DNA of 63,713 nt, counting the filler, from Dugesia japonica (lineage: Eukaryota), in the NCBI GenBank assembly GCA_001938525.1. It is 6 parts of 6 records of this genome, joined end to end, with 100 filler letters (N's around TTAATTAATTAA, not from the genome) between each part and the next. Parts side by side here need not be neighbours in the genome. Positions count along the whole stretch, not along the records: positions 43,453 to 55,272 come from MQRL01625299.1; 5 more parts are not named here. One strand, 5' to 3'. Numbering within the stretch: position 1 is the first letter of the stretch; each line of letters begins with the position of its first letter. This document shows, in pieces, positions 35,799 to 63,713 of the stretch. The position numbers and the translations under genes were made by a program. Below the pieces are notes generated by a model, which saw nothing but the letters and a program-made list of their open reading frames with translations, was not told the origin of the DNA and did no database searches.

Positions 35799-35815
35799 TT
35801 TTTTATCTTAAGAAA

Positions 35816-36304: not shown

Positions 36305-36335
36305 AATAATACTATATAAAATAGCTTACGGACAA

Positions 36336-37415: not shown

Positions 37416-37481
37416 AATATTTTACATGTTACATTTTAACACTCTTCGTGGCTATATTTATTTCATAGAAAATAGCAAAGC

Positions 37482-38162
37482 ATGAGTCATCAATTCTTAG
37501 TTGTTGGTAAAGACCAAGATTTAATTATTGATTTAAAATTTCCTATAGAATTAGATTCAGAATATGAACTTGGATTGTTATGTTTTTCATGTTACAATAT
37601 TACTTTTAATGTAACAAATAAAAATAATAAATATACTGTTGATAGTGTTGAATATAAACTTGAACCCGGATAATATGAAGTAAAAAAAATATCTGACAAA
37701 TTAAAAAAGAAACATGAAATAGAAGTTCAAGCCGATACAGCAACTGTAAAATGTATCTTGAATACAAAAAAGATATTAACATTTAATGAGAATTCTTTCT
37801 TTCATGGAATGTTAGGTTTCATCGCAAAAACTTATCACCATGGAGAATATTTATCAGAAAATAAAGTTGACATTTCAAATATTAACACAATAAGCATAAC
37901 ATGCAACATTGTTAAAGGTAATTATGTAAAATCTAAAACAGGTGAAACAGAACAAATAAATTTATTATATTCATTTCCTATTAATACAGTTGGCTTAGGC
38001 TATAAAATACTAGAAAGACCTAAAACAATAATTTATTCTAAAATTAATACAAATTATATTTCAAGATTAAAATTAAATGTAGTAGATGAACATTTTAAAA
38101 CAATAGATTTTAACCAAGAGACAATTACTGTTTTAGTTCATTTACGTAAATATAGACTTTAA
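37482..38162 (+). pseudogene. Minor capsid protein (penton)
   Basis: FPIELDSEYELGLLCFSCYN...NVTNKNN...LEPG*YEV and INTISITCNIVKGNY...LYSFP...GYKILERP..IIYSKIN...LNVVDEH..IDFNQETITVLVHLR; the two ORFs share a frame with one stop at 37671. Confidence 0.85.
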
Positions 38163-38255
38163 AATTTAATGTCACATTTAACATGTTACACTTTACACAA
38201 AACATTTTACATCTTTACATTTTACATTTAATAAATAGCAAAGCAAACAAAGTGC

Positions 38256-38677
38256 ATGAATTATTGTTTATTAGACTTTTTAAAAACATTTGGAATCTCT
38301 ACAACTACAAATTTTGATTTATATTCAATTGCTGACTTTTTAGAATTACCTCTTGAGATTTATATGAAGATTGAATGAAATACCTAAAGAGCTAACTGGT
38401 AATATTATTTTTAATTATCAAAATTCAAATCAAAATGGAACACATTGGACATGTTACACAAAAGGTTATTACTTTGATTCTTTTGGTTTAAAACCTTTAG
38501 ATGAAATAGTGAAACATGTAAAAGTTTATAATGATTTTTCAAGTTCAACATTTTGGTACTAACATTTGTGGTGTATTATGCATTTATTTTTTATATAAGA
38601 TCGAACGAAGTGAGTTCACTGATATTATATCTGAAATGTTAACACTTTATNATTCACTATTAGAAAAAGATGAATAA
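38256..38677 (+). pseudogene. Adenain-like (C5/Ulp1-fold) cysteine maturation protease
   Basis: GTHWTC (His), YFDSFG (Asp), QVQ..GTNICGVLCIYFL (Gln/Cys); two frameshifts (about 38370 and 38538). Confidence 0.88.
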
Positions 38678-40919
38678 ATTTGGTGAAAGTATATTAAATT
38701 TAAATACAACAGAAGTATTAAAAAAGATGGATGCTAAACTTAAAATGGCAGATGCTTATAATGAAAATAAATTTGTAAATAAAGCAGGTGACACAATAAC
38801 ATGTTTAAAAATAATAGAAGATCCTATAGATCTCTCTGATGCTGTTAATTTAAAATATGTAAAACAATTAGAAGATAAAATACAATCTCATGAATTAGTT
38901 TTTACAAAACATTTAAAGGTAGATAAAGCTGAAATCAACAAAGTTTATTTACAATATAAAGCTGAACGTTTAAATAATCCAGCTTTGAATGATAAAATTA
39001 AAAATCTAACAAATAAATGTTCACAAACAAAATATTATAATATTATTAGTGAAATTGAAAGATTGTTGATAGAAGTGCTTCCTTTTAAAAAAAGTGATTT
39101 ACTTGTCAAGTTTAAAGAAATAGAGCGTGGTGATTTAAATAAAAAACTTACAAATGATGTTGAGATGTTACATGTTACACTTTACAAATTACATGATAAC
39201 ATAAATAAGAAAACATTTAATCAACATTTAAGTAATATTAATTTACTTAAATCTAACAGTAAAATTTTTTTACTTAAAACTTCACATATAAGAAAAGAAG
39301 TTGAAACAATAAGACCAAAACTTCACCCAAAACATATTAAAAGATTTAATGATACATATGAAACCTATAAAGAAACACTTAATGATAAAAATTTAAAAGA
39401 ACTAATTGATAATTATTTGCTTCATAAATTTAATGAAAGTATTTATAAAATATTATTAATTAAATCTAATGATAATAATCTTCCAGAATTTTCTATTATT
39501 GATAAATATATTTATAATTTAGATTTTAAAAGAAAAGGAAAAGATATTTATTGTATTTATTTACATACAACATTAAATGAAGAAGTTACGATAAAAATAT
39601 CTGGATCATCTGAAGTTCAAAGTTATTATTATATAATTAAAATTAATACTATAACAAAGATATTTGTTCACGAGAAAAAAGAAGATAATAAAATAAATGT
39701 TTTTCGTGATAGTTCTGAATTCACCACACCGCCCACAGGAAAAATAAGTTATATTGAAATTATTTTATCAGATAAATTTAACTTGTATGAATTAAGTATT
39801 AACTTATTTAAATTTGATATTCTTGATAGGTTAACTAAAGAATTTGAAAAGATAAAAGAAAAACTTCACCCAAAACATCTTAACATGTTTAATGTTTTAT
39901 TTAAAAGTTATAAAGAAAAACTTACACCTATAGCATTAAAACCTTTAAGAGAAATGTTTGATAATTATTTAATTTATATTAAAAGACCTCCCGACGGACA
40001 AATAATATTTTCAATTGTGCGTGGCGAATTTAGTTATATGGAGAAATATGTAAATGATTTTGATTTTAAACGAAAAGGTAAACATATTGTTTTACATATG
40101 AATATTAAAAGAAAACTTACTATAACTATATATGGTCATTCGACATTAGAAAAATTTACATATGCGGTTAATTTTAATCGTTTAGGTGTATCATTTTTAT
40201 TTATTCCCCAAAACAATACATTTAACATTTACAGAAAAAGCACTGAAAACACAAAAGATAAAATTATAAAATATATTGAAATACTTTTTCCAGAAGATGT
40301 TAACATAATTAATTTAATCATTAAAATTATTACATTTAAACTTCCAGATGTAATAAATAAAGAATATGAAAGAATAAAACCAGATCTTGGAAGATTACAA
40401 TTAAATAGAATAGAAAAATTAATAAAAGAATATGAAGAAAGTGGTGAAGAGTTGCCATTTAAAAGTATAAAAGATTTAATTGATAATTATTTACCATTTA
40501 AACATGATACATTTTCTGAACCACCAATATTTTTTCTTAAAGTAGATAAAACATATAATCTTCCTTATTATTTTATTTATGGAAAAGTAGAAAGAATAGA
40601 TTTTAAAAGAAAAGGTAAAATAATAATAAAGGATGAATTGGTATTTACACATTTTTTTTATCTTGAAGAACCATTTATTGTTTCAATAAAGACATATTTA
40701 CCTTTTAATTTAAAAAAAATTAGTGTTGATGGTTATTCTGAGAATAAAAAATTTAAATTCCCTATTAAATATAATAACAACATAATATCACACAATGTGA
40801 CTAATAACCGTTTCAGCTCTAATATTTTTTACTTTTCTGAAGAGTATAATGTTAATATAAACTTTATTGAAATAACTTTACCAAAAAGAATTTCTATTAA
40901 TCATATTTTAATTGAATAA
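38670..40919 (+). CDS. 749-aa putative fibre/attachment protein with three internal repeats
   Basis: Intact ORF; N-terminal FVNKAGDT...DPIDLSDAVNLKYV fibre-like motif; three repeats each containing DNYL, DFKRKGK and I.(Y/F)IEI. Confidence 0.6.
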   Translation: MNKFGESILNLNTTEVLKKMDAKLKMADAYNENKFVNKAGDTITCLKIIEDPIDLSDAVNLKYVKQLEDKIQSHELVFTKHLKVDKAEINKVYLQYKAERLNNPALNDKIKNLTNKCSQTKYYNIISEIERLLIEVLPFKKSDLLVKFKEIERGDLNKKLTNDVEMLHVTLYKLHDNINKKTFNQHLSNINLLKSNSKIFLLKTSHIRKEVETIRPKLHPKHIKRFNDTYETYKETLNDKNLKELIDNYLLHKFNESIYKILLIKSNDNNLPEFSIIDKYIYNLDFKRKGKDIYCIYLHTTLNEEVTIKISGSSEVQSYYYIIKINTITKIFVHEKKEDNKINVFRDSSEFTTPPTGKISYIEIILSDKFNLYELSINLFKFDILDRLTKEFEKIKEKLHPKHLNMFNVLFKSYKEKLTPIALKPLREMFDNYLIYIKRPPDGQIIFSIVRGEFSYMEKYVNDFDFKRKGKHIVLHMNIKRKLTITIYGHSTLEKFTYAVNFNRLGVSFLFIPQNNTFNIYRKSTENTKDKIIKYIEILFPEDVNIINLIIKIITFKLPDVINKEYERIKPDLGRLQLNRIEKLIKEYEESGEELPFKSIKDLIDNYLPFKHDTFSEPPIFFLKVDKTYNLPYYFIYGKVERIDFKRKGKIIIKDELVFTHFFYLEEPFIVSIKTYLPFNLKKISVDGYSENKKFKFPIKYNNNIISHNVTNNRFSSNIFYFSEEYNVNINFIEITLPKRISINHILIE

Positions 40920-40920
40920 A

Positions 40921-41490
40921 ATGGAGAATGAAAGTCTTTATCCGAATATTGATGAAAGTAAAAACTATACAATTTTAGATTTAAAAAATAAACTTGCGAT
41001 CTCTAGAATTCGAGATTTTGAAAATGATCTTTATTATATTAAAGATAAAATTAAACATTATAAGAAAATACATAAAAGATGGAATAGAATAGATTCANNN
41101 NNNNNNNNNNNNNNNNNNNNNNNNNNNNNNNNNNNNNNNNNNNNNNNNNNNNNNNNNNNNNNNNNNNNNNNNNNNNCACTTACTACAATCGGTATACCAA
41201 TAATAACTGGTGCAATATCCGTGTTACCTGTAATTGGAACATTTAACACATCACTTATAAAATCTAGAAAAGAGAAGTATGAAAAGTTAATTAAGAAACT
41301 TGAATGTGTAAAAAATAAATTATTCTTATTTCAACAAAAAGCAGTTAATGATGAAATTTTGACTGATGATGAATTATTGATTTCTAAAAATATAGTTAAT
41401 GAAGTTCATGAGTTGATTTCTGGTCATAAAAAAGAAAAATCTAAAACTTATGATGCTGATTTAAAGTTTTTAGTTGAAAATCAAACTTAA
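40921..41490 (+). CDS. Polinton accessory helical protein with central hydrophobic hairpin
   Basis: MENESLYPNI, coiled-coil segments and hydrophobic LTTIGIPIITGAISVLPVIG; partly in an N gap. Confidence 0.55.
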   Translation: MENESLYPNIDESKNYTILDLKNKLAISRIRDFENDLYYIKDKIKHYKKIHKRWNRIDSXXXXXXXXXXXXXXXXXXXXXXXXXXXLTTIGIPIITGAISVLPVIGTFNTSLIKSRKEKYEKLIKKLECVKNKLFLFQQKAVNDEILTDDELLISKNIVNEVHELISGHKKEKSKTYDADLKFLVENQT

Positions 41491-41634
41491 GTTATTAATG
41501 AAATGAAGCAAAAACTAGAAATTTAGATGTAAAATGTAAAGTGTAATTACTTTATGTATCCTTTGTCTAAAATGACACACGCGCGTGTCAAAAAGTAAAA
41601 TTTTGTATGTGTGATCAAATTTTTTATTTATAAA

Positions 41635-43143
41635 ATGGAGGTAATAATGAATGAATCACTTATAAATGAAATATGTGGATTATGTTGTAAAACATGTGGT
41701 TATAAAGTTAAACTGTTTTTATCAATGTCACCAAAAACAAGTAAATGGGATGGAGCACAGTTAAAACCCGAATTTTTTAATAAAACTACTAAAGAAATGG
41801 ATGCCTTACAAAATATGCCTTAAGTTAAAAAAGTTTAAAAAAATAAAACACTTGAAGAAGAAATAGAAAGTGAAAAAGAAGAAATAGAAAGTTCTGAAAG
41901 TGAAATAGAAATGGAAGAAATAATTAAAACATTTAAAAAAGAAGAAATAGATGAAATAGTTAAAACAATTAAAAAAGAAGGTATAAAACCAATAGAAGAA
42001 GTAAAACCAATAAAACAATTAAAACATACAATATTTGAAGAAGAAGTAAAACCAATAGAAAAATTAAAACATAAAATATTTGAAGAAGTAAAACTAATAA
42101 AACAATTAGAACATAAAATAGTTGAAGAAGTAAAACCAATAGTTGAAGTACCAAGTGAAATAGCAATTAATGAAGAAGATTTTATACAAATGAAACATGA
42201 TCAAGATGGAAGTGATTATGAAATAGAATCAATTACATCTGACTCTGTACAATCCATACAAGAAAATCAAATTGTTAAACGTAACATTGAATATGTGCAA
42301 ATACCAAATGATAATTTAGTAATAATTACTAATCCTGATAATTTAACATTATTAAAAAGAAATACATTTGAAGAATTACCATGCTTAGAAGAATATGATA
42401 GCCCTAAATTTGATATGAAAATTAATCCAAAAGAAACAAGTATTATTAGGATGGAAAATTATATAAAACTGTAGAAAATAGTCAAATAGTTAATGGACAA
42501 TTAATATTACCATTGCCAATTAGTAAAAATGAAAAAGATCAAATAAGATTGAACAATGAAAGAAGGAAAAAAAATAAGAGCAAAATATTTTCCAACAGAT
42601 AATGAAGATGATGTTGTATTAGCAATGAATAAACCAACTACATTCAGAATGGAACTTTATAATTCCTTTAATGAAAATAAAATATAGAAAGTAGTATTAT
42701 TACCTATTAATCCATATGAATTTCGAGAAAACTGTGCTATATTATCAACAGAAAATCCAAATGAATTATTAGTAAAATTAAGGAGTTGGAATAAAATATT
42801 AGTAATGCATAAACGTGCAACATTATATTCCTATGCAATGATAGGTGCAATATTATACACTTTAAAATGAAGATTTAAAGTTAATAATCAGAAAAAACAT
42901 TATAATGATTTTTTAAATTTTATAGCAGGATATGGATATGTTTATACAATGAGTTACATTAATAGATTAATTAGATTTGCTAGAATAGCAGAAACATGGC
43001 CAGGAATTATTGAAAGTAATTTATCGTTTAGGAAGATTCAAGATAATTTTGCTGAGCTTGAAGAAATAATAGCTACAGAAAGTGCGAAGATACAGGAACT
43101 AAATATGAAAATAGAATCACGAAGACAACTAAAATTAAAATAA
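41635..43143 (+). pseudogene. Polinton accessory gene(s): Cys-motif N-terminus, EEVKPI repeats, helical C-terminus
   Basis: CCKTCG, acidic EEVKPI(K/E)(Q/K)L repeats, C-terminal GYGYVYTMSYINRLIRFARIAETWPGII; several stops and frameshifts. Confidence 0.5.
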
Positions 43144-43454: not shown

Positions 43455-45420
43455 TGTGAAAAAGCTTAAATTTTCTCTTCTTTTTTAAAATGTCTAAAAT
43501 TATTGTATTTTACTCTTAAAATTAAAATTAAAGCTATTTTTCTCTAAATTATTTGAAAATTATTTATTCAATCAATTATTTTGGTCACTTTCAATAAATA
43601 TTTAAAATTATTTCAAATTATCTAATGCTTAATAAAAATTTTAATTATTATAATTAAAGTTTGAAATTAACTGTGTTCATTAAGGTTAAAGATTGACGAT
43701 TTTTAACCACGTTATTCTTAGCATTGAATTCTCTATCTAATAGTTACTTTGATGTTTAAATTTGATTTAAGTTTTTTATTTTCATTAATACTCAACTCTA
43801 ATTTAAAAAAACATAATTTTAACTATTTATTTGAAAGATTTTNCTAAAATTAATGTGTTTTCACATAAATTCAAGTTCTATGTACTTTATCTGATAATTA
43901 TTTGAAAATTATTAAATCTATCATACTTAATATATTTTATCAATTATATGAGTTATTTCCAATAATTATTAAGAAATTATTTTAATGAATCAATGCCTAA
44001 TAAAAAATTTCTATTATAAAATAAATATTAATTAAAAAATACATGCGAAATTTAATTTGATTNAAAAATATTTCAAAATTTCATCAATAATTAATAAACA
44101 TTTTCTATTATAATTTAAATTTAACCATAACAAATTTTAAATTGAATTATAATCTAATTTATTTTCAAAACACGATTAAACATTTACTTATAAAAGTATA
44201 GTTTTAATCAAATTAAACATTGAAATTAATCAATTCATCATACTTAATTTATTTAATCAATTATAGGAGATATTTTTAATAAATAATTACAAATTTGTTT
44301 TCAAAATTATTAATACTTAATAAAAAATTCCTATTCTAAATTAAATTTTACGATAAAAATGGAATACTAGTGCACAGAGCTTTGATTACTGAGGTCAAGT
44401 AAAGAGTAAGGTTTGGTGATTTTAGGGTAATATATTTGTAAATAGTGTATAATTCTCTATCAAATAGACTGGTTTTTAATTAAATTTGAGATACTTTTTA
44501 TTTTTATTTAATTTTTGAGAAATAAAAACTTTTAACTTTTTTCATAGTAATTTAATTTGACAAATTTCTACCGTATATATTCTTGATCAGTAAAAGATTC
44601 TCTATCGAATAGTACTTGGATCATTAAATTTGGATGAAAATTTTAAAAAATAAATTTTTATTTGTTCTCGATTAACCAGAATCGGTATTTTTGACCATAT
44701 TTTTTCGAATTTTCTTTGCAAAAGTTAGTTTAATGATTTTAGGTGTTGTTTTTCTTGATCAGTAAAAGATTCTCTATCGAATAATGTATGTTTTGTTACG
44801 ATTTGAGCAGAAGAATTTTCAAAAATTGTCAAAAAATCTCAGGTTTATCCCATTGGCTTAGTCCCAGACAAGATTTGGTGATTTCTAACTAGGTCAGTCC
44901 TAATCAGCGTAAAATTTTTTATTGAATAGACTATGCTATAATTAGATTTCAGTTACCCTTTTTAAAATTCATAATTTCCTCCCGGACTCCCAAAATAAAG
45001 TACATGCTTTTTCTATATAACTTTTTATATATAAGATTTGTTTATGTAAACGATTTTAGGTTTACATATTTGGAATCAGTGAAAGGTTCTCGATCGAATA
45101 GATATCTTGCTGACTAATTTTGAGACACTTTTTTATTTTTTCGAAAAAGTTAAGAAATCTAAAAGGATAGCTGTATATCTTCGCTATGAAGCATTTTGAA
45201 CGAGGGATATTTTACCTTTGTACAGTCACATTTTTTATCCTGAGTAACATAATACCAAATTTGAAATCATACGAGTTATGTACACAGAGAAAATCAAGCA
45301 CCAAAAATCAAAATTTGAGATTTTCCACTACAAAACCACATTTATTTCATCCCGGATAAACTTTGGCGATTTTAGGTTTATATATTTGTAATCAATGGAA
45401 AATTCTCTATCTAAAAACAT
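43455..45420 (+). repeat. Another partial copy of the AT-rich family with recurrent TTCTCTATCGAATAG motifs
   Basis: 44490-45350 is collinear with 4970-5835; 44818-44872 is the reverse complement of 1-57. Confidence 0.8.
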
Positions 45421-46219
45421 GGTTATTTAATGTAAAGATGAGAAATAATTTTTTCAAAATATTTTTATGTGAAAAATAATCTCAATCGAATTCTGCATCG
45501 ATTGATGTGAAAATCTCGACAAAAAATTTTTTCAAAAATTTTCGAAATTTCAAATGTACCGGATTCCCATAAAAATTTGATTTAAAAATTTTAAAAATCT
45601 GAAAATTTAAACAAAAATAATCTAATTTCACCAATTTATCACAAAAGCCGAAATTCATTTTATGAGATTACCTTTGCTCCAGAAAATTACAGGAGTTCAG
45701 CGCAAGAAAATTCAAGAAGAATGAAGGGCAGGGCATTTAAATTTTATAATTGAAAAATTCTACCATCATCCAGAAGGGTACTGCAGGATCCCAAAGAACG
45801 AACCAATGGGCAATCTAAAAATATAAATAAAACAAAGACACGATCATCATGTGCCATTCCAAAAATAGGCACCAATGAAATGTCAAAAAACACGGAAAAA
45901 GTTCTAAAAATTGGCAACAACACCAATCAAAGGCCAGAACTTTGAACTAAAAATAAATAGCCAATGAGGACGATGTCGAGATGCATCGTAAAAGGGTAAA
46001 AAACCCCGTATTTTAGAACAGAAATAATCACTATTTTGAAATTTATTCGCTGTTACAGCATTGTGTTACTCACTAAAAAGAACGTGTACGAAAAATACTT
46101 GTGATAATCACTTTCATATTGCAATCCGTAAGGCAGCAATTGATATTAATTTTGCCAACTAAAACTATCATCAAATTGTAGAATAAGTAAAGGACTCAAT
46201 CAAGGACAAGAATAAGATT

Positions 46220-46993
46220 TCCACAACGAATGGCTGTAGGAGTCGAACCACGAAAATCATCAATGTTACGGTTAAATGTGGCATGCAATTCACTCCAATT
46301 GATGTAAATAAAGGAGGAATCTATAGCAGGGAAGATCTTGAGAAAGCTAGGGAAAATATACTACTTCCAGTCCGAAGGATGCAAATTCTATCGAATATAG
46401 TACAATTAACCAGTGGAACTAACATAGACGAATGCCTAAATTAGGAACCACTCTTGTCAGCAGATCATTTCCAGAAAATCACTGAAAATGTCATGCGGAA
46501 AATGTGGGGAAGATTTATAATATTTGGCCAAGCAATGGCAGGATTGTTGGGAGTTATGTTGATAATTTCGGTAGCACGAGTAGTGATTACCCAATTGTTT
46601 CCACATATACAAAAGAGAAAAGAAAGTAAATTAAAAAATGGTAACCGGAATATTTCCATTCTTAGCCAAAACAATGGTGCTTAATAGTCACTCTAAAGAC
46701 ATCGAATGGGTAAAACGATTCATTCGGAAGTTAGGACAAATAAGAGGATCGGANNNNNNNNNNNNNNNNNNNNNNNNNNNNNNNNNNNNNNNNNNNNNNN
46801 NNNNNNNNNNNNNNNNNNNNNNNNNNNNNNNNNNNNNGAAAGATTTAACAACAAAAGCGAAAGTAGGAGCAGCAGTGATGACGATAAAGGAGAAAGCAGT
46901 GGAACTCCACATGTAACCAGTTATAAAACCGCCATGGAATACTATACGGAGTTGAAAAGACAACAATATGAAAATATCAGTAAAATGCAATGA
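46220..46993 (+). pseudogene. Chuvirus-like (class III) glycoprotein / env, C-terminal remnant
   Basis: GGIYSREDLEKARENILLPVRRMQILSNI ... MWGRFIIFGQAMAGLLGVMLIISVARVVI ... MVTGIFPFLAKTMVL matches the GIY..DL...R..I..P..R stem and WG.F..FG..AG..G membrane-proximal/TM pattern; frameshifted. Confidence 0.65.
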
Positions 46994-48178
46994 CTAAGAA
47001 ATGCATTAAAATTCGGAGGAAATGAAAGTGAAGGTAGACCACGTCGGGAAATAAAAGAAGCATAATTAAGGAAGCCTGTGTACGGGACGGAAAACCTCGG
47101 ACGAAATAAAAGAAAGCCTACGCATGGAAGGAAGATACGTGAAGTCCTAAGTACATTAACCAGTATGTTAAAGGAAGGCCACGTAGTTAAGCACACTAAA
47201 GAAAGCCTGATTAGAGGAAGCATTAAAGGAAGAGAGCCGGAAGCGTTCGCCTGCACGAAAAAGGTACTCCAAACGGGCCCGCCGATCCCTCAGGAAACTC
47301 TCGGTACTCCCCCATAAATTTAGGAAAAGTGTGCACTGTTACCTAGGAATTTTAAAAGGAAGAAAAGGAAGAAAGCCAGAAGATTTCGCCTATACTACAG
47401 AAAAATGGGTACTCCCACAATTAGGAAGAGATAATCTGGCGTTAATTAGAAAGGAATTAAGGAAGCGTTAAGATTAAAGGAAGACTTAATTAAGGAAAAT
47501 AAAAAAGGAAAAATTAAGGAAGATGGTCATGGGGCTCTGATGACAAGTGTGGAGCAGCATGATATTAAAGTAAGTTTAAAATCAGGAAGAGGAGTGATTG
47601 TCTCCTAAGTAAAGACAATTAGAAGTAAATTTTTATTCTAGAAAAGTTAAACTACAAGTATTACAAAACCAAAATCGAAATACAGTAGGCAACCAATAAG
47701 CCGGACTCTGACAAAATAGATTCCGACTCGGAAAATAGAAAACCACTTACAAGGTCTAACATATCCGGAATATCTACCCCAATCTCAGTTTTAAAGGAAA
47801 CTTAGATTAAACGATCCAAGTCTTCCAGAAGTAAAGTCAGATTGCCATTATAACTTGATCAGGAAGGACATATCTATTCTGGCAGACGGAAAATTTCAGC
47901 AAACCGACACCCCAGATTAAACCACAAACTCTAGAGACAATCAGCTCAAACAGTAGCCCAAGTGATAAAGAAAATCAAATACTCCAGAAGCGAACCCACA
48001 GTAATTCCCCTACCGATAAAAACCGACTAAGCGAACCTCGAAAGAGACGGAGATAGTAATTGGTAACCAAGGAAGCACCGAAATTTTAACACTAAGAGAC
48101 GATAACCAAAGAAACGAAACCACCCCATCTATAACTGAAAAGCCTAAAATAGAAACCAACACAGCAAGGAACAAAAAC

Positions 48179-49215
48179 ATGTCAACCAAAACTGAAAACC
48201 AACGACCGGAGTGGAAAATAAAATTTGATGGCGAATATTTTAGTGGGATACCAGAAAAATTCGACGAATTTATCCAAAATTATGATATGTATGCCAAAAC
48301 TTGTGGCTGGGACGAGGAAGCAAAAAGAAAGCGGTTACCAGTTTACTTAACAGGAGTAGCCAAAACCGTGCTTTGGGATCACACTAAGGGCATGGAAGCC
48401 ATTCCCGAAAAATGGGAAGATGTAGTGAAGATATTAACAGATAACTTCCAAAATTTAAAACTGACTGGACAAGATTTTGAACAATTTACAAACCNGAAGC
48501 AACAACGAGGGGAAACTCCACAAGCTTATATGATGGAACACAAGAGGCCTGGCAAGCTGGCCTTAGGAGATAAACTGGAAGACAGTCAAGTGTTAGCTAT
48601 ATTCTTAAATGGATTACGCGACGAGAACGCCAAACTAATGGTAAAGTTGAGTAAGCCAGTGACTCTNNNNNNNNNNNNNNNNNNNNNNNNNNNNNNNNNN
48701 NNNNNNNNNNNNNNNNTAAATGGATTACGCGACGAGAACGCCAAACTAATGGTAAAGTTGAGTAAGCCAGTGACTCTACAAGACGCTCTGTCCACATTGC
48801 GAATTGTAGCAGATAGACCATCAGAAAGAATATTCAAAGTAGAAGGACAGACAGAGGAAACTACACCGCGGATATCAGATTTCATACCTAACACGCAATC
48901 AATGATGAAAACTTTGACTCCAGGACAGAAACGGAATAACAGGAATGAAAGACCCAACTACCTCCGAGGAAATGGTGGAAGATTTATTGCTCCTCGGAAC
49001 AATTGGCAAAATAACCGGGATATACAATGTAATTCCTGTGGAAGGAGGGGACATATAGCCCGAGATTGTAGAAGTCGAGGCAATAATAATAAAAATAATC
49101 GATTTTGTACGCACTGCAAGAAAACCAACCACAATGTAGAAACATGCTTTTTGAAAAATCCAACTGTCTGTTATAAGTGCAACAGAAGAGGGTAAATGGC
49201 AAAAGAATGTCCAAA
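48179..49215 (+). CDS. LTR-retroelement Gag (capsid plus three CCHC knuckles; third hit by a stop at 49193)
   Basis: FSGIPEKFDEFIQNYDMYAKTCGW...LPVYLTGVA, KQQRGETPQAY (MHR-like), FLNGL, CNSCGRRGHIARDC, CTHCKKTNHNVETC, CYKCNRRG*MAKEC. Confidence 0.92.
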
Positions 49216-49640
49216 CGGAAACCAAACAAATTATAATCGAAATACGAATACGAATCTGAATAATCTAATGCAGGAAAATGAGATATTACGGCATTGAGTA
49301 AACGAAAACAAGGGACAAGTCAACTTAGTGCATCAGAATACTTTTGACAATGTGCACCATAAAGTTCAACAAGAAAATGATTGGCTCAAGTGGCAAAATC
49401 AAGATTTACAGGTGCAGCAGGGAAGACTAGCAAAAAGAAACTTGCTAAACGAACCAAGAATCAATGTAATATGGTCAGAACACACAGACAAATTTATAAC
49501 CAACATGATGAAGCAACGGAGGTTACCGAAATGGAAGATACTCGGAACGAATACTGATTACGTCACCAGAATGCGAGTGGACCAACGAAATCATATATAA
49601 AACAATAGAAACATCAACGACAACCACCGGACGAAGACGG

Positions 49641-50705
49641 GTGACGAATCACTTACTTCGATTATACAAGCACCCAGAAGTACACGCAAAAGTAAAAGCC
49701 AACTGGCAGAAAACAATATCGGATGACATCGCCGAGCTTTATAAAGAAACCAAATTAGACGATTACGAATTCGAAATTCAATATGTATGGCATAATAACC
49801 CCAAGGTAACTCCGAAAGGACCAAAGCTATCACTAAAGGGATTGACAGTTCGATACTTGAAAGAAGCCCTTAACGAAATAAAATGGAGCAAAGTAAACGA
49901 TATCAAAGTTATGACGGTAAATCCGTATCTCGAATTACCGCCGTTTAATGATCAGCAACAATGGAATGGAAAGTGGAATAGGCATAGATTACAAATAGGT
50001 AATATAGGAATCAATATTCTTCCAGATGATAAAAATTTAATTTATTATGGGGCACGACCGCATGAAACTACAGTAATCAAATTGATAAATTGGGGTTTAG
50101 AGAGAAGAGAAGTTAAATGCAACATGATAAAGATGCTGCAAATGCCGGCAAGAGAAGTAGTAGCGATGCGTAAAGTGGAGAAAATGGTTAACCGTGTACA
50201 GATAGAGAAGGAAAAGTTACCCCGAGAGAAGTATTGGATGATAATAAATAGAATTTACGACATATATGATGGGTTGGAAATACCCGAAGAAATTGAGGAT
50301 CAATGGCTCATGATTAGACAGAAGTATGCCGAAGAAATATTAGCAACTACCAAAATTCGGGACTTTAAATTATATTTGAATATAGGTAAAAATGAACAAG
50401 AAAGGACTAAGTATAGTCGATTAAAGCCACAAGGAATAACCATGATGGATTTGATGGATGCCGTTACCGATAAGTGGCAAGAATATGGATTAAACATGGT
50501 ACCTCTATTCATAAACGGCAAATTGGTTGAGACAGATGACGAGGACAAACACATATACCAATGCCATGCAAAACCCGGAGAAATATGTGAGTTAGATGTA
50601 GAGGAGGAGCCACGGACCGCCCAATCACCAGATCTTGAGGAACGAATGGAAGAAATAACAGAATTATACGTATCTGAGGTATTGACAGTATTAAGGAACA
50701 AGTAA
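49641..50705 (+). CDS. Post-Gag polyprotein segment with two ubiquitin-like modules
   Basis: DYEFEI..GLTVRYLKEAL..PDDKNLIYYGARPHETTVIKL and DFKLYL..GITMMDLMDAV..LFINGKLV..EDKHIYQCHAKPGEICELDV. No PR/RT/IN motifs. Confidence 0.6.
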   Translation: MTNHLLRLYKHPEVHAKVKANWQKTISDDIAELYKETKLDDYEFEIQYVWHNNPKVTPKGPKLSLKGLTVRYLKEALNEIKWSKVNDIKVMTVNPYLELPPFNDQQQWNGKWNRHRLQIGNIGINILPDDKNLIYYGARPHETTVIKLINWGLERREVKCNMIKMLQMPAREVVAMRKVEKMVNRVQIEKEKLPREKYWMIINRIYDIYDGLEIPEEIEDQWLMIRQKYAEEILATTKIRDFKLYLNIGKNEQERTKYSRLKPQGITMMDLMDAVTDKWQEYGLNMVPLFINGKLVETDDEDKHIYQCHAKPGEICELDVEEEPRTAQSPDLEERMEEITELYVSEVLTVLRNK

Positions 50706-50893
50706 AAGAAAATCAGAAAATACAGAATATTGATAACCTATCAATAATTACCACAAAATCAGTTGAATTTCTAGAAGGGACACCGACAATACGTGATATC
50801 CGGATAAATTATACGAAACCAATAACTGAAGAATCCGCCACATTACACGCCATCAACGATCTATTAAGAGTAACACGGGAAACTCGACCAGTA

Positions 50894-52603
50894 GTGAATA
50901 TCAAAGTATATTGGAAAATGATGAATAACCAACGGGATCTGGCAACCTATGGACAACTCAGCTTGTGGGCTCGAGAACAATGGTGGAATGAGAAAAACTT
51001 ATACGAAGAGGAAGTACAAAATACATCCACTATATCCGACTATTTTATCAGAGTCAGTCTCCTCAGCAAAGAGGGAAGCATAAAGAAGGTGGATATGATA
51101 ACCTTGGAGGGATTAACTATCCGACACGTTATAAAACCAACCAAGAAATGGTTATGGCCAAAATCACTCAAGTCATATAAAATACAGGCGGGAGCAACAA
51201 TGATCATACTAGCCAAGAAAGAGGATCACATCTTTCTACATGATATTAAACCAGGAGAGATCACAGAAATCAAACTAACACCGCGAAAAATGACAATAGA
51301 TATCCCGATACCAAAAATGCCTGATACCGATCAACTCATATTCAACATGATGAGCCTATATATACAGGAAATATTACCGGTGGAGAATAAACGCCTCATA
51401 AATACTTATGGGGAAAACAAAGCCCAAGTAAACATGGTTAGGAATAATGAGTTCGAGGCCACAGATCCAACATCAGATGAGGTAGAGGAGGAGGAAGAAA
51501 CCTCAGAAGACACAGTCAAACCCAGACTGTTACCATTTAAACAAGAATTCGTTGATCCTTTCAGTTCTCCTCAAGCAGAGCGGATATCGAAGAAAATTTC
51601 TGATTTCTGTTATTTTCTGGGAAGAATACCCAGGGCGACATTTTGGAAGGCATTGCATTTGCCAACGGATTTGTCAAAGTATGACGAAATAGCAAAAGAA
51701 GAACGCAACAAATGGGAATCAGTACTCAAGCTACATATGGGTACAGTTAAGGCCAGTGCCAAGGGAGAGGATTTCCAGGTCACTATAGAATATCAGACAC
51801 CAAACAAAAAACTCAGGAAGGAACCGGAATTGGCTGTAATGCATATACCACATTTTAATAGTACATCGGCTGTGGAATTACAGGAAATTATAGAATCATT
51901 GGATATAGCTGACCAACAGAAAGGCTATATAATCACAAGCAAATATTTGAGATTCCCTATAAAGTTTGAAGGAAAACAACATTTAATAGACATAGTGTTG
52001 AGACCAGGTGAAAATACCTTTCTCCAAATACAGAAACCAGAAGACTACACTCCAGGCCCAGTTAAGTCCATGGAAGAAGTGTTACAACAACTAGAGGATT
52101 TATATGAACAAGAAATCAACAGTGGTAAACTGTTTGAAGAAGTCGACGATAGAACAATGGAGATAAATATCGAGTTATGGGAAGACAGTAAAACATGGGG
52201 AAGTCTGGCGCGAGTAATAATGAAAATACTCCTGACCCTTGAAGAAAACTTGGAACTATTAAGAGATGACAAAGTCAAACAACTAATTTTGAAGTTAAAT
52301 CAGCTACGAGCTATAAGTCGTATGCCAGGAGACGTAATGGATGCAATATTATATAAGGCAGTTCGAATGATAACTAACGAAGCCGTAATAATCAAATTTC
52401 CAGATGAAAGCGAAATTCATTGGCAGGTCCAGATGAACGATCAGTGGTCTAAGTTACGGAGAAGGATTATAAAATTTTTGAATAAACAGCGTAACCTTGA
52501 TGAGGAGGAAACCGGAACACAATTATTATTACAGGAAGACGATATAGTACTCTATTATAACCAAGTAATAGAACCGGATCAAATGAGATTGCCAGGACGT
52601 TAG
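50894..52603 (+). CDS. Post-Gag polyprotein segment with three further ubiquitin-like modules
   Basis: DYFIRV..GLTIRHV..EDHIFLHDIKPGEITEIKL; DFQVTI..TSAVELQEII..QHLIDIVLRPGENTFLQI; VIIKFPDES..VQMNDQWSKLRRRI..MRLPGR. Same frame as Gag. Confidence 0.6.
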   Translation: MNIKVYWKMMNNQRDLATYGQLSLWAREQWWNEKNLYEEEVQNTSTISDYFIRVSLLSKEGSIKKVDMITLEGLTIRHVIKPTKKWLWPKSLKSYKIQAGATMIILAKKEDHIFLHDIKPGEITEIKLTPRKMTIDIPIPKMPDTDQLIFNMMSLYIQEILPVENKRLINTYGENKAQVNMVRNNEFEATDPTSDEVEEEEETSEDTVKPRLLPFKQEFVDPFSSPQAERISKKISDFCYFLGRIPRATFWKALHLPTDLSKYDEIAKEERNKWESVLKLHMGTVKASAKGEDFQVTIEYQTPNKKLRKEPELAVMHIPHFNSTSAVELQEIIESLDIADQQKGYIITSKYLRFPIKFEGKQHLIDIVLRPGENTFLQIQKPEDYTPGPVKSMEEVLQQLEDLYEQEINSGKLFEEVDDRTMEINIELWEDSKTWGSLARVIMKILLTLEENLELLRDDKVKQLILKLNQLRAISRMPGDVMDAILYKAVRMITNEAVIIKFPDESEIHWQVQMNDQWSKLRRRIIKFLNKQRNLDEEETGTQLLLQEDDIVLYYNQVIEPDQMRLPGR

Positions 52604-52681
52604 ATTAAATTCTTGAAAGGGTTCCCTGAGGGCTGTTTTACCCCAGCCCCGTTTTCTTCACCCAACTCAGGTGGAACCCCA

Positions 52682-53065
52682 ATAGAAATAACAAATGAAG
52701 AATATGAAATCGCAAATATTGAATCGGGAAGCAATAATTTGTTGGAATATATGATGTACTATATGAAGCTAGACATATACTTGCTAGCCGATGTATTCCA
52801 AACATTTCGTAAAAAAGCACTTGAAGAGCATGGATTGGAGCCACTACGATTTGTTTCATTGCCAGGATTAAACTGATCAAGTGCTCTCAAGTCGATGGAT
52901 AGGTAAATAGAATTACTCCAAGATACTGAAATGCATCGTCTATTTGAGTTAGAAATTCGTGAAAGAATTACTTTTGTGAACAAACATTATGTCCAGGCAG
53001 ATGAAAATATCTCACTGCTTTACATTGATATTAGTAACCTATATTGTTGGGCCTTAACACAACCA
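52682..53065 (+). pseudogene. pPolB fragment (Exo III to palm motif A) of another Polinton
   Basis: ITNEEYEIA..NLLEYMMYYMKLDIYLLADVFQTFRK..GLEP..FVSLPGL..IELLQD.EM..LFE..IR..LLYIDISNLYCWALTQP. Confidence 0.88.
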
Positions 53066-53306
53066 ACATATTAGTGAAACATCTTATATTACTCGTAGCA
53101 CAAAATAGTTTAAAATGAACAAATAAAAATGTATTAAAACATCTAATTAAAAATAGTTAATTATAACGAATAAAATTCATATGAAAGGCATGAACCACAA
53201 AATAATATGATGACCACAAAAATTGATAACAATTATGAGTAGTTAAAAAAAACCAATGAGATCATGCAAATGAAAAAAAGTTATAAATTGTCATTAATTG
53301 CAGAAG

Positions 53307-53432
53307 TTATTTCTCGAATTTGATACTCATTGCTTGAAGATAGTTTTGTCGTGCTATATTTTCTTCGGCTGGACTTGAAATGGGTGACCACTTTGGATCA
53401 CCAGAAAATAAGCGAATACATTTAACATAGCC
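53307..53432 (-). CDS. ADI1: Last exon of acireductone dioxygenase (methionine salvage)
   Basis: tttattctag acceptor then GYVKCIRLFSGDPKWSPISSPAEENIARQNYLQAMSIKFEK*, matching the ADI1 C-terminal pattern NY.KAMRLF.GEP.W....RPAD...AR..Y. Upstream exons not found. Confidence 0.75.
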   Translation of the reverse strand, partial: GYVKCIRLFSGDPKWSPISSPAEENIARQNYLQAMSIKFEK

Positions 53433-55651: not shown

Positions 55652-56034
55652 ATGTCATTTAATACTTTGAAAGTTGAGGGTGGGGATGGAACTCATATTC
55701 AGAAAGCTTTGGTTGAAACAATTTTAAATTATAATGGAGATAGTAAAAATATATGTCTTGTAGCAATAGGGTATAGATCAGGTGAAGTTAGAAAAGATTC
55801 TATTAAAAAATCCAAATCATTGTCTCTAGATGGTTCATTAAAATTAGATTTTATGGATCAACATTTGTATTGGCTCCGGATTTCGATATAAATCAGAGTC
55901 AATTATCTCAACAGAGAAATTTACGATTGGGTATAAAATTTGCAAAAGCTTTAACTGTACCGGAATTTGTAATTATTTATGGAGTATTTGAAAATGAAAT
56001 CCAAATTAAAGCAAACAGAACATTAATAATGTGA
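55652..56034 (+). pseudogene. Polinton major capsid protein remnant (internally deleted)
   Basis: KALVETILNYNGDSK..L..IGY...R...IKKSKSLSLDGSLKLDFMDQ..Y and C-terminal IKFAKAL...VIIYGVFENEIQIKANR. Confidence 0.7.
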
Positions 56035-56099
56035 ACAAAATCTATTGCAATCAAATTGTCAAATATGAAGTAATTTTAATTTATATATTTTTATTTTAT

Positions 56100-56420
56100 T
56101 TAATTAGTTCTATTCAGATAATTCAAATCGGTTCAAAATTGTTGGGATCAACGTGGTTAGGAGTATATCCAGTAAATAAAGCCATAATCTTCAATACTCA
56201 AACCTCTAATCTCGGTGGAGAACATTGTATAGCAGTTTACAATAAACCAGCAAAAATATTAGTATTTGATCCGCTTGGGTATTATTATCCAGAAATATTG
56301 GTTTCACATCTCTCAAAAATATCAAAGCCAATTGAGTGTAACAAAAAAAATATTTCAAAACCCATTCACAACGACTTGCGGACAACATTGTTTAATATGG
56401 TTAAAAAATCAACATTATAT
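56100..56420 (+). pseudogene. Adenain-like protease remnant (second Polinton family)
   Basis: WLGVYP..IIFNT..SNLGGEHCIAVY..VFDPLG, then after a frameshift QNPFTTTCGQHCLIWL. Confidence 0.78.
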
Positions 56421-57774
56421 TTGAAATTCATGTCTATGTAAATAAATGTTAACATTGTAGTAGTCAATATTGTATTATGTTATATGTAATAAATGTATAA
56501 AATTAAAATGTTTTTGTTTTTTTATTTATTTTTAACAAATTATTCTTTGTTTTAATCATGAATAAACTTTGTTAATTTCATGACTAATAATTTGTTGTTT
56601 AAATATTATCGCTTTACTATTGGTTGATTAGTAAATCATTGAATAAAAAGGTATTAATTATTTATTTTTGTCACAATTTTAAAATTAATTTTTAACACAG
56701 GAACAAATATTATCTTATTTTGTAAGTTTTATTTTTTTTAATTTAAATTTAAATTTATCGTTATCTTATTTTAGTTAAAATGAATTCAAATAATACTAAT
56801 GAAGGATATTCGAGAAAAAGATTATTTGTGAAAGTAAATTTATCAATATATTAAGATTGTAAATTTATTATTTATTTTCAGATTATAAACTAAAACCAAT
56901 ATTTGAATGGAGCACCGATTTCTGAAAATATAAAGAAAATGGTATATTCATTATTATTTGATTATTACTATTTCTTTTCCTCAGTTATTAGAAATGTTGA
57001 ATGACGAGAAAAGAAGAGAAAATTCCATGGATCCGAGCCTCGTTCCTAATGATTCGGACCGAATTTATGACATGATTAATAAGAGTAAGAATATATTTTT
57101 ATTATTAATTTTCTTTTATGAGGTTAAATTTAAAAGTTTTATTTATCTGAATAATAATAATACATTAACTTTGTTTTTAAATAATAATAATGTGAACTTA
57201 TGTTCATTTGCTTTTTTTTAAAGTTAAATATTCTCAATAATAATAAATTATAGACTATTGATTTCAAAAATTTTTAAATAATGTTATATTGTAAATTATG
57301 TTGATTTGTTTTATTTTAAAACTTGTTAATTTTCAGACATTCATATAATTTGAATTGATATATTTAAATTATTTAGAAATGTCATTTAAGTAACATAAAC
57401 GTTTTAATATACAATATGTATGCCAATTCAATAAAGAAAATGCAACATGGTTGCAAATTATAATAAATTTCAAAAGTTTAAAATTATCACAACTCTTTCT
57501 ATTGTCAATAAAAATTGATTTTAGTAGGGATTTCATTGAAAAATCTTCCATTTTGGAGCATTTTTATTCACATAATTCATTTCCCTTAGGAGCATTTATC
57601 CTCTTCTCTAGCCCATTAGCAATTTCATCTATATGGTTTTAGCACCAAATCTTGCAGAGACATTCACTCGGAAGGATTACTTGTTTACCTTTTTAAAGCT
57701 TTAAATTTGAGTGAAATCTCTTTATTCAAGTATTTATTATTTCATTTTTGTGGAATTTGCTGCAGTATTTATAG

Positions 57775-58611: not shown

Positions 58612-59344
58612 TTATCCAATATCAATAAATAAAACCTAAATTTTGATCAAAGCTTTTTTATTAAATGAATTCAATAATATTTTTAGTATAATCATGAAGA
58701 GATTTTTAGTTCACTCAAATAAAGACGCGGGAGCTATGAAGACAGTAAAAAAATGCATCTGAGAAGGATGATTTAATTCCAAAATGCATAGTATGCTTTA
58801 ATATTCTTGCAAATTAATCTATGGTTCCAAGCAAACTTGAAAGACATATCCGACAAAAACATCCAGAATTGAAAGTCAAGTCAAAAGATTATTTCGAAAG
58901 ACTGAAGGAAAATTCCGTAAAACAAGCTAATGAATTTAAAGCATCTACAAGTCTATCTGATAACGCTCAAATGACCAGTTATATAATCGCAAAAATGCTT
59001 GCTAAGAATAAAAAATTACATCTCGATGCGAAGTCAGTTATTAAGCCCGCACTAACAATAGAAGCTGGTATCATGATCGGACCTGAAGCAGTAGAAAAAT
59101 TTAAAAGAATCCCGCTCTCACATCAAATAAAGAATCATTTTTCACGAAGCACAAAATTTTTGAAAAATTGTGAGCTCTTCAAATTGACGAAAGCACGGAT
59201 ATTAGCAACAAAGCACAACTGCTGTCATTTTTACGCATCGTAAAGAATGGCAGAATTGTTGAAAAATACTTTTTTTGTGATAATTTGACGCAGACTACAA
59301 CTGGAAAAGATTTATTTGAAATGGTGAATAGCAAAGTTGCAATA

Positions 59345-60930
59345 AAAGGGCATGTCGTCGGAACACATATACTCTAACCCACATGTATCCATTATTATTG
59401 ATTGTAATTTCATCTCTTTTTAAACATTTCTGCATGACCATTTTCTCAGTGAAAATACATTTTTTACTAGTGTCATAATTAATTTTTCTGATCTGAGTGA
59501 TCCAATATCATGTTTGTGATAAAGTATTCACCAATGCAACTTACATCTACGTTTTCATATATTGCAATTCTATAACACTGTTTATCATTATAAATCTCAC
59601 GAGTCTCTGTTTTTCGGAATCCCGTATAACAACTCATTCACATGGTCGGTGTTAGGTTTTTATTGACTCAGATAGAACTGTTTTTGAAATAAATGGAAAA
59701 TTAACATTCTGTATTATTATTCAATCATTAGCTGCATGCACCATTATTTCGTATTTATTCATCCTTCTTTATCCAATATTATGATGTAGAAATATATTTG
59801 GCATAATATCAAACACATGTGCTGTCAGTACAGGTCCAATTGACATATTTAATTGTATCTTCCCTAAACATTTTTCTGTTATACCCTTTGCGCATGTTAC
59901 TTTTGTCATAGGTTTAAAAATCCTTACAGCACGGTTCTTTATACAGATACGCTCGGCTTATTCTTGGCTTATAACATTCAAATCAGCTCCCGTGTCAATA
60001 CATAGTTTTTACTGGTATCCTTGCAACCTGACATTCAACAATTATTTTATTTCTTGCTTCTTCTGGCCTTGACACTGATATTAATGTTGGTTCATATTTT
60101 TAAAGTGATTGTCTTGGCCGTGCTCTATTTCATTTGATAAAATTAACATACTTATCTTCGAGTGACAGTTTGAATGTTCCAAGATGGTTTATTTTCCCTA
60201 ATTGTATTCACTTGATTGCTTTATCCTTTTTTCTAGTTCCTCATGGATTACGGATTCTATTTGCACTTCATCTTTATGAAAGCATCTTAAATTACTTGTT
60301 TATTTGCAGGTTTTTATAGGATAGTCACCCCCACACAAGAAGCATTGTTCAATATAGCAGTCTTTAGCTATACGGCCTTTCTAACCACACGTAAAGCATG
60401 TTCTTGTTTATATTATTGATATGTTATTATATGTTATTATTATGTTATTATTATATGTTTATTAAACACATTTGGTTGCAGAAGATTTGTAATTTTGTCT
60501 CCTTAATTCGACAATTTCATTCTTTAGCTTTTCTATTTCAACTTTCAAATTCTTTATAGTTTTATTCTTTTGCCTTATATTACATAATACATTTTCTTTC
60601 GTTCCTTAGTCATCTATCGTCTTTTATACTTTCTACTGCTTCTTCCAATGATTTTGGTTCGAATAATTTTTAGTGTATTTGTCAATTGTTTATGTCCCAA
60701 ACGATTAGTAAATGATTTTACTATGATTTCTTTTTTCGTTTCAGATAAAACGCTGCTCTTCATACGAATACGCTTAGCGAAATCCGTTATTTTTCCGCTT
60801 CAATACCGCATTAAATCAAGTATCAGCATAGCTTGGTTAATTTTTTATGGTTTAACATTCAGTATATTGATAAGATGTTTTCCAAGTAATCGATATCAAC
60901 CTTTTTTATCATTCAGTCAAATTTTTAGTA
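59345..60930 (-). mobile_element. Degenerate gag-protease retrotransposon remnant
   Basis: Minus strand CFTCG*KG.IAKE knuckle (about 60360-60400) and aspartic protease LCIDTGADLNVI (about 59972-60006). Confidence 0.7.
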
Positions 60931-60939
60931 CATCTCATA

Positions 60940-63713
60940 AAGAAGAATGGAGTTCGAACCGATCCAACAAAAGTTGAAGCGATAAAAAATTTCGGAAGAC
61001 CTAAATGTATAAAGAACTTGAGAAGCTTTTTGGAATATGCAATTACTGTAGACGATTTATCAATAATTACTCAAACAAAGATAGAAGCTTGGATGAGCTA
61101 TGTGAAAGTAACAATAAAAAACATGTGTGGACGAAAAGTTGTGATAAAGCTTTTAATGAGATGAAAGAGCCTTTAACAAAAACACCAATATTGAGCTTTC
61201 CAGATATCAAAAAGATGTTTGTACTAGATACAGATGCGAGTTTTAATGCAATTGGAGCATTTATTTGCAAATAGCTGAAAAAAGTTTAGAACAAGTTATT
61301 GCATATGGATCACATGCAATGTCAGCTCATGAAAAAGGATATTGTATAACAAGAAAGGAATTATTGTGTTGAGATGCTTTGGGGATTGTTGCCAAAGCAA
61401 ATCAGCAATTGCGTGAGTTTATGAGTTTTATTAACGTAAATTNNNNNNNNNNNNNNNNNNNNNNNNNNNNNNNATGATTCCCTTATATGACCTTAATATC
61501 GTTATTATATATAAATTATATTCGTATATATATACTATATAGTCAACTATTTAACTGAAATATAAAATCAATTACTTTAAACAGAATTCTTTATTAACGT
61601 ATGACAATATCAAGTTACTATTTTGATCTCGCGGGTGTCGTTTCAGTAAAACTCGACTCGACTTGAGATTTGTAAAAATGGTAATCAAACTAAAATTTGT
61701 ACAAGTATTTATATCCAATTTGTTGATGCATGTGCATCCTTTCATAATATAAAATTACAAAAAAAAATTACGCATATTCACATAATAGATTCAAATATTT
61801 ATCAAAATTGTAAAATGTTAACCTCAAAATTTAAATCAATCATTACAATAATATAAAGTTCAATAAATCAATCATTACAGTAATATAAAGTTCAATTATT
61901 ATTCAGTTATTAACAACATATGATAATAAATAATATAATAATAAAACATGATAATAAATAATATAATAATAAAACTTTGAATATTAAAATTCGTCAACAA
62001 ATTGTCAATAATAATTTTTATCAATTAAAATTGTCGATTCATAGTTTCAATTAAAGTTATTAACGAATTTGATTTGAGCTGCTCCTTTGNNNNNNTCGAA
62101 TTGCTTCTGATTGTGTTGCTTTGGTTGATTGAGCGATTGATTGAGCTGCTTTCTCTGTGTGTATATTGTTTGTTATGTTGCGTGTGTGCATTTTTTTCTC
62201 AATTCCCAACAAATGTTCCACCTTAAGAAAAAGATGCTCCTGCATCTTGCGTCAAGAACAAGGTAAAGTAGGGGCAACTCATATCATGCAAACCAGAAGG
62301 GATACTATTGATACAGGGTTCATTATAAATACATGGGTTGAATATCTCTTCGATGTTGGGTAGATTAGGGTAAGGAGAGGTTGGTCGGGAGAAGACTTGT
62401 AATGGTGTCCTATGTCGTGTCAATACCTTTGCAGGATCTTGTTTNNNNNNNNNNNNNNNNNNNNNNNNNNNNNNNNNNNNNNNNNNNNNNNNNNGTTGAT
62501 TGAGCGATTGATTGAGCTGCTTTCTCTGTGTGTATATTGTTTGTTATGTTGCGTGTGTGCATTTTTTTATCAGTTCCCAACAATTGGCCATTTACTATTT
62601 TTGTAATCATTTTAAACATTATCTGTAGGGAAAAGGATTTTTGGCGAGAACAGATCACAAGGCGATAGCATTTATGAAAAACACAAACAAGCCAATTACT
62701 CCACAATTTCAGACTTGGATGAATTTTCTTAGTAGCCTAGATATGGTATTGGAATTTAGACAAGGTGCGAAACACACAAATGCCGAAATGCTGTCAAGAA
62801 TGAATTGTGGTACATATGTACAATGCTTAACAGATCATGAGAACCCAAAGGAAGGAAAAATAAAGACAAAAACAATTAATGGTATATCAGGTTCGGATAC
62901 ATATAAATGGCAAACTAATGTAGAAAAATGGAACAGATAAAGAATAATATGAAAAATAGAACATGTGAAACGTTTTGATTAATAGAAGATATAATAAAAA
63001 CAAAAGACGACAAAATATGGATCCCCACAGAAAGAAAAATTCAAATGGTAAAAAAATGCATAATTTATTGATAAACGCAGGCACTAAAAAAGTGATAAAT
63101 TATTTAATCATTTAAAAATTGAATATGAGAAAGAGAGAAACTGTGTCAAAAGTAATAAAAGAATGTACAGTGTGTCAAATGAACAAAGTAATACCAGTTA
63201 GAACAAAGTAGGAAACTATAAAATTAAAGGCTAATGAACCATTTGAGAGTATTTATATTGATATCTATGAAATCTTAGGAAGAAAAAGATATATATTTTC
63301 CATAATACATAAATTTAGCAGATATATATGTGCTTAACAGCCCTAGTTAAACAACATGAGTAATTCATAAAGAAAACGATTATGGATAAATGGATACTGA
63401 GATTTAGTGCACCAAAAGAGATACATGTAGATAGTGAGAATGTTTTCGAATAGAAAGCCTATACAGAAATGACTGATTCAATGAATATAAAGATTTGCTT
63501 TTCAAGTCCATATCACCATAATACAAACGAATAGTAGAACGTCAATTCAGAACAATCAGAGATTACATAATTGCAATATTAAAAGATAAAAAGAATAAAG
63601 ATTTGGAAGAGTTAGTACCAGAAATAAAATATACATTGAATGCAACAAGTCAGAAGACTTTGGGGATAAGTCCAGCAGAAGTGATTTTTGGTAAGAAAAT
63701 ACATGGTTCAAAA
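60940..63713 (+). mobile_element. Ty3/gypsy pol remnant (RT connection, RNase H, integrase), interrupted by a nested LTR element
   Basis: DPTKVEAIK, FGICNYCRRFI, VLDTDASFNAIGA, RKELL|LAIYYFCNHFKHYL, RTDHKA, PFESIYID, FSSPYHH.TN. Confidence 0.88.
61367..62582 (-). mobile_element. Nested LTR retrotransposon (interior probably collapsed in the N gap); 3' LTR 62211-61367
   Basis: TGTTG...CAACA ends with 4-bp TSD ATTG (61363-61366, 62583-62586); LTR start TGTTGGGAA at 62582 and 62211; purine tract AAGGTGGAA precedes the second copy. Confidence 0.8.

Follow-up and report, generated by a model that had tools for sequence, protein, structure and literature searches.

A decayed gypsy-type retroelement of Dugesia japonica in which Gag is followed by four repeat units with probable ubiquitin-like folds

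The locus described here lies in a 63,713-nucleotide stretch of the planarian Dugesia japonica (assembly GCA_001938525.1; six parts of six records joined with filler, hereafter the window). The window is AT-rich, mostly 18-33% GC, and crowded with decayed mobile elements, and a tRNA gene search over its whole length returned none. One interval, 45700-52603, stands apart: its GC content is 0.35-0.41 and its AT skew +0.24 to +0.43, against a GC content of 0.23-0.25 in the flanks. It holds a copy of a long terminal repeat (LTR) retroelement, all on the plus strand, in which a Gag gene starting at 48179 is followed by a long accessory coding block. An earlier, sequence-only reading saw in this block about five tandem ubiquitin-like modules standing in place of protease and reverse transcriptase. 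The analysis below keeps the modules in altered form and replaces the second part of that proposal with a probable truncation.

Gag (48179..49195) consists of a capsid-type domain and zinc knuckles. Its match to Retrotrans_gag (PF03732; E 1e-4, 22.9 bits) falls slightly under the curated cut-off of 24.1, and zf-CCHC (PF00098) is matched with E 7.2e-5; a capsid-domain Gag with CCHC knuckles is one of the marks of Ty3/gypsy (Metaviridae) LTR elements. The knuckles (CX2CX4HX4C; 49028..49210) start at 49028, 49106 and 49169. Three had been proposed; the first two are intact, but in the third a stop stands where the His is expected. Gag is also interrupted by an N gap at which the assembly overlaps (~48606-48717). 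A Gag peptide is duplicated around the gap (48587-48778) as part of this overlap, and contigs of both DNA runs used here join 48605 directly to 48717, skipping 111 bases.

The roughly 3.4 kb past the knuckles are coding, as had been proposed, though interrupted by stops and frame changes. Two open frames cover most of it, one of 397 codons (49512-50705) and one of 641 codons (50678-52603), and over 49196-52600 two of the three frames carry 71 and 92 stops. The interruptions are stops at 49193, 49295 and 49598 and frame changes at ~49450-49640 and near 50690. Other copies, seen in DNA contigs, are not of the same length as this one around the frame changes, so the interruptions appear to reflect decay of this particular copy. 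Positions 48179, 49328, 50894 and 52613 do share the Gag frame and 49641 lies in a different one, but the open frame is already closed by the stop at 52601-52603, and 52613 falls in differently composed sequence. Stops and frame changes occur in the linker between the knuckles and the first repeat unit (49196..49631). Two short, mutually alike coiled-coil-like peptides (QENE/QEND) lie within 49268-49400.

The linker is followed by four units duplicated long ago and by a fifth domain distinct from them. A unit is laid out as a helical part containing a conserved Trp residue, a beta module that begins with Asp and ends in P[GH]E, and a trailing helix. Unit 1 (49632..50096) has a partial helical part and the module M1 (49758-50090, with an insertion). 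Unit 2 (50109..50702) contains a short motif at 50118, a helical bundle, M2 (~50352-50612) and the trailing helix; unit 3 (50792..51382) holds M3 (51038-51280), and unit 4 (51572..52120) holds M4 (51770-52039). All eight peptide motifs quoted for modules 1-4 in the sequence-only reading are present, and the [KR]P[GH]E motif occurs four times (50055, 50571, 51248 and 52001). The true repeat is nevertheless larger than the 80-residue module first described: it spans 155-200 residues.

Several comparisons support common descent of the units. First, in a leave-one-out test, in which a hidden Markov model (HMM) built from three units scores the remaining one, units 1 to 4 reached 25.9, 48.3, 46.3 and 36.6 bits; no value as high came from 500 shuffles of each, the best of which scored 11.2. 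Second, BLASTP of one open reading frame (ORF) against the other gave 23% identity over 159 residues (E 1.8e-8 with composition adjustment). Third, with a weaker signal, the modules M1-M4, isolated and aligned globally, were related in five of six pairs (p <= 0.0045; M3-M4, p 0.056), and homology also extends to the helical parts of units 2-4 (at most 1 of 1000 shuffles). The units share only about 20% identity with one another, and similarity between them at the DNA level was sought and not found; the duplications are therefore old.

The idea that the modules follow the ubiquitin beta-grasp pattern draws its support from predicted structure. Fold searches for unit 2 against PDB and viral libraries both gave beta-grasp domains, on the same residues and over the whole domain length, with USP7 Ubl1-5, ISG15 and the SUMO-like domains of Rad60/Nip45 as top matches, and it is probable that each unit combines a helical bundle with a ubiquitin-like (Ubl) beta-grasp domain. 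Pfam and other sequence searches gave no Ubl match for M1-M4, and identity to known Ubls is 8-14%. The fold could instead be wrong, an artefact of modelling from a shallow alignment: confidence (pLDDT) is low in both AlphaFold models (unit 2 and M3), M3 modelled alone is too poor to be informative and found no fold match, and a wide structure search with unit 2 returned helical matches only among those listed. We regard such an error as improbable, given that the two libraries agree and that both models place strands and helix in identical order. The matches do extend to non-ubiquitin members of the fold (PB1, RBD, MoaD). The resemblance to USP7, ISG15 and Rad60/Nip45 lies in the tandem, here predicted, beta-grasp domains; it differs in that no sequence homology was detected and in that the domains here alternate with helical bundles inside a retroelement polyprotein. 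USP7 and SLD-type domains serve as non-conjugated binding surfaces. None of the five modules ends in Gly-Gly, and neither do the coding frames, which agrees with the proposal that these domains are not of the conjugatable (type I) kind. A BAG-domain reading of the helical part was dropped: its match was to a generic three-helix arrangement, and Pfam gave no BAG match.

The fifth module does not belong to the series. Four units are mutually homologous, but the tail that carries M5 is unrelated to them: it scored 0.1 bits, a value reached by 199 of 500 shuffles, its hhalign probability was 0.3%, and none of the four pairings of M5 with M1-M4 was significant. The tail begins with a probably helical region (52121..52363) that has no credible domain match and is not homologous to the helices of the repeats. 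A BCL-2-like reading of 52064-52372, prompted by BH-like motifs, found no support in domain searches. M5 itself (52364..52603) is a possible degenerate SUMO-like domain without Gly-Gly, whose frame is ended by the stop. All 29 of its matches in a PDB sequence search are SUMO chains, the best of them weak (SUMO1, E 0.13), and ESM leads point to PF11976 (0.84) and PF00240 (0.83); Pfam itself gave no PF11976 match. On these sequence resemblances we lean towards a derivation of M5 from SUMO.

Just past the stop the composition changes, the AT skew falling to +0.07, and an unrelated, decayed fragment of a Polinton-type protein-primed DNA polymerase (52688..53061) bounds the copy. The fragment is 38% identical over 53 residues (E 2e-11) to a polymerase elsewhere in the window (33116-35665) and matches PF03175 with E 0.059, and single-copy contigs start at 53062, where it ends. 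In both DNA runs the local depth within the junction (52604-52690) exceeds 130,000 at position 52623, and a short separate repeat may sit there; the window holds no other copy of the junction sequence. Over 52609-53142, reads of one RNA run (X10) with unlike ends fall on the polymerase fragment, which suggests that Polinton-type relatives are expressed elsewhere in the genome.

Upstream of Gag lies a purine-rich non-coding stretch with short internal repeats (47020..47540), LTR-like or leader, which has high DNA depth and low RNA cover on both strands (X10); no second copy of it was found in the window. Further upstream, 45701..46750 is the decayed 3' part of an envelope (env)-like class III fusion glycoprotein, truncated at its 5' end and carrying a hydrophobic, transmembrane-like segment. 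Its residues 200-298 (~46298-46594) match Monjiviricetes_fusion (PF24664, E 1.6e-19), the chuvirus type, and its depth is like that of gag. An N gap (46755-46838) lies between this fragment and the gag-bearing contig. The order env, LTR-like stretch, gag would arise either from tandem or collapsed copies or from an ENV-GAG-POL arrangement.

How common the element is can be judged from contigs of two of eight DNA sets and reads of two of seven raw RNA runs (each sampled to about one quarter), placed on 45400-53400. Summed contig depth, which is not a copy count, has a median of 7,160 and 14,919 in the two DNA runs over 12 bins of the block (minimum 1,173 and 1,523) and of 14,459 and 30,637 over five bins of gag, against 11.5 and 9.4 in the unique flank. 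This shows that the element is a highly repeated family. Its pieces are 82-99% alike, and transitions make up 695 of 1010 changed places in DNA run X1. Depth and composition support the assignment of the block to the LTR element. The depth ratio between the DNA runs is 1.3-2.8 over 46201-52608, compared with 0.56 in a neighbouring repeat and 0.82 in unique DNA, which hints weakly that env, gag and block move as one. In both RNA runs every one of the 10 bins covering 49672-52341 had zero depth, with a few reads on the LTR-like stretch, so the block looks silent in these two samples. One contig per DNA run joins 47434 to 49358 and leaves out the 1923 bases between them; a derivative that lacks gag through internal deletion thus exists.

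These boundaries bear on the claim that the block stands instead of protease and reverse transcriptase. The motifs of protease (D[ST]G), reverse transcriptase ([YF]xDD) and integrase (HHCC) are indeed missing from all six frames over 45400-53400, and a protease normally comes after the knuckles. A non-autonomous family in which the block truly replaces pol would account for this, and LTR derivatives of such a non-autonomous kind, carrying captured DNA, have been described (PMC6431247). Yet the frame stops where the composition breaks and foreign polymerase sequence follows, and for that reason the lack of pol here does not show replacement. The env fragment of similar depth adjoining the element and the planarian element Burro, whose pol lies thousands of residues behind Gag, also argue against it, and we consider a pol-less family unlikely. 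It is likely, rather, that pol is present in other copies and was lost from this one by truncation at 52603. No piece shows what follows the block in other copies, since the listed repeat contig pieces are at most 586 bases long.

Burro is also the closest described parallel. Burro/GYPSM1 elements are giant, gypsy-like planarian elements of more than 20 kb in thousands of copies, with a 4,873-residue polyprotein that is described as holding MATH, a Ubi2/SUMO-like motif (PF11976), BCL-2, BIR and ankyrin domains, an in-frame env and then pol (PMC6431247). By that description Burro has a Gag with three knuckles and a long, domain-rich extension, and the earlier statement that no described LTR lineage has such an architecture was too strong (PMC6431247). 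Shared features are a Retrotrans_gag domain with CCHC knuckles that opens a multi-kilobase accessory polyprotein, and very high copy number; possibly shared are an env resembling the fusion glycoproteins of negative-strand RNA viruses, here the fragment upstream, and a SUMO-like motif, for which M5 is a weak candidate. The differences, compared by description only, are that Burro has one Ubi2/SUMO-like motif whereas four helical-plus-Ubl units occur here, and that its env lies between gag and pol whereas the env fragment here is upstream of gag, behind the non-coding stretch. MATH, BIR, BCL-2 and ankyrin domains were not detected in 49196-52603 of this truncated copy. By analogy, the element appears to be built on the same plan as Burro. 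The portions of PMC11410931 and PMC8532177 available add nothing further on domains.

The env fragment invites a second comparison. Env proteins of the glycoprotein B (gB)/chuvirus type are widespread in gypsy elements, with ENV-GAG-POL order in two mites, according to the accessible text of a survey (PMC13524379). Errantiviruses with env of the herpes simplex virus (HSV)/gB type thus share with this locus a chuvirus-like class III env beside a gypsy-type Gag, and ENV-GAG-POL would fit the order seen here. Unlike this pol-less copy with its long block, the surveyed regions extended up to 10 kb and had short gaps, and the word "ubiquitin" is absent from the survey's available text and seven supplements; long elements of the present kind may have escaped it (PMC13524379).

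Protein collections yielded no relatives. A HMMER profile of the four units against 1.84 billion protein representatives gave two matches, an S-layer protein and a futsch-like protein, which are repetitive and unrelated. Word-index protein searches found no relatives of ORF B (longer forms only) or of Gag (longer forms, and near forms with residues 1-160), viral and metagenome contigs held none, and the ESM Atlas held none for M3; such collections may lack this animal's repeats, and these blanks do not amount to novelty. Literature searches turned up no account of an LTR polyprotein with tandem Ubl domains, although the primary Burro descriptions, their supplements and Repbase may already contain repeats of this kind. 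The fourfold helical-plus-Ubl unit is apparently undescribed.

Taken together, the locus would be a dead copy, truncated at its 3' end, of a Ty3/gypsy-type element that is highly repeated and probably carries env; the whole explanation, including an action against the host, we put no higher than evenly balanced. Gag and the accessory block would form one polyprotein. The motif [VC]N[ML][VI][RKH] occurs at 49319 and 49465 in the linker, at 50118 in unit 2 and at 51428, preceding units 1, 2 and 4, with an acidic linker behind two of the copies; the fourth copy with its linker (51428..51520) is a possible protease site. Four such motifs appeared in none of 5000 shuffles and the window's six frames hold one further occurrence, for a motif that was defined post hoc. 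By likeness to known Gag-protease junctions it could be a cleavage site: the element's own protease may or, just as readily, may not cut at these recurring VN[ML]V-type motifs and free the units as separate proteins. More tentatively, units without Gly-Gly would escape conjugation and might offer host ubiquitin- and SUMO-binding proteins a surface to bind, as decoys or adaptors would, shielding the element's proteins from breakdown or weakening the silencing of transposons that depends on SUMO. SUMO is reported to be linked to piRNA-guided (PIWI-interacting RNA) silencing in Drosophila (10.1101/533091, PMC10363806). It is a speculative and rather unlikely extension that four paralogous helical-plus-Ubl proteins and a SUMO mimic form a counter-defence, sequestering ubiquitin receptors and SUMO-binding silencing proteins and suppressing SUMO-dependent piRNA silencing or proteasomal restriction. 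If the modules do bind ubiquitin or SUMO partners, they become candidate transposon counter-defence proteins.

A quieter role is conceivable, in which the beta-grasp units are purely structural (spacer, matrix-like or particle-scaffold) and do not act on host ubiquitin or SUMO pathways. Their low identity to one another and to known Ubls, the PB1, RBD and MoaD folds among their matches, and their location in a Gag polyprotein, well established as structural, would all suit it. Against this stand M5, whose sole sequence matches are SUMO, and Burro, which has ubiquitination- and apoptosis-related domains and whose IAP region is reported, second-hand, to act on the host (accessible text of PMC13465017); a purely structural role seems doubtful, if the strongest of the competing explanations.

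Ubl domains inside a viral polyprotein are also known from pestiviruses, where cleavage at the Ubl inserts of bovine viral diarrhoea virus (BVDV) needs Gly-Gly. The block could by comparison have entered this copy as an unrelated insert or as a gene captured from the host (a UBL-BAG co-chaperone, for example), or its Ubls could be host deubiquitinase cleavage signals as in those insertions. The BVDV inserts are recent, host-derived and drive cleavage, as far as the accessible text of PMC13517609 describes them, whereas the units here are old, diverged and lack Gly-Gly, and we rate this explanation as very improbable. With Burro as the first, the locus would be another animal LTR element that has taken host-pathway domains into its Gag polyprotein.

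Elsewhere the window holds other mobile elements. Gypsy-type pol remnants (RVT_1, RT_RNaseH, Integrase_H2C2) at 10938-12294 (minus), 19915-20827 (plus), 60874-61271 (plus) and 62629-62940 (plus) have lower GC than the gag-block element and are probably other, unlinked families. A large, mostly open Polinton-like block (31915-42474, plus) contains protein-primed polymerase pieces at 33116-35668 and ORFs that presumably correspond to minor capsid and other Polinton genes; its 751-residue ORF at 38664-40919 has no Pfam match. Pieces at 12891-13256, 56010-56441 and 58818-59243 (plus), which lack a supporting Pfam match, we take to resemble a Polinton ATPase, a Polinton protease and a hAT-type transposase. 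Sequence like that of a host gene was noticed just once, in an exon-sized piece (29581-29793, minus) that seems to resemble the PUA-domain protein MCTS1. Finally, 8071-9922 (plus) is a decayed piggyBac-type transposase (PF13843, E 7.8e-31).

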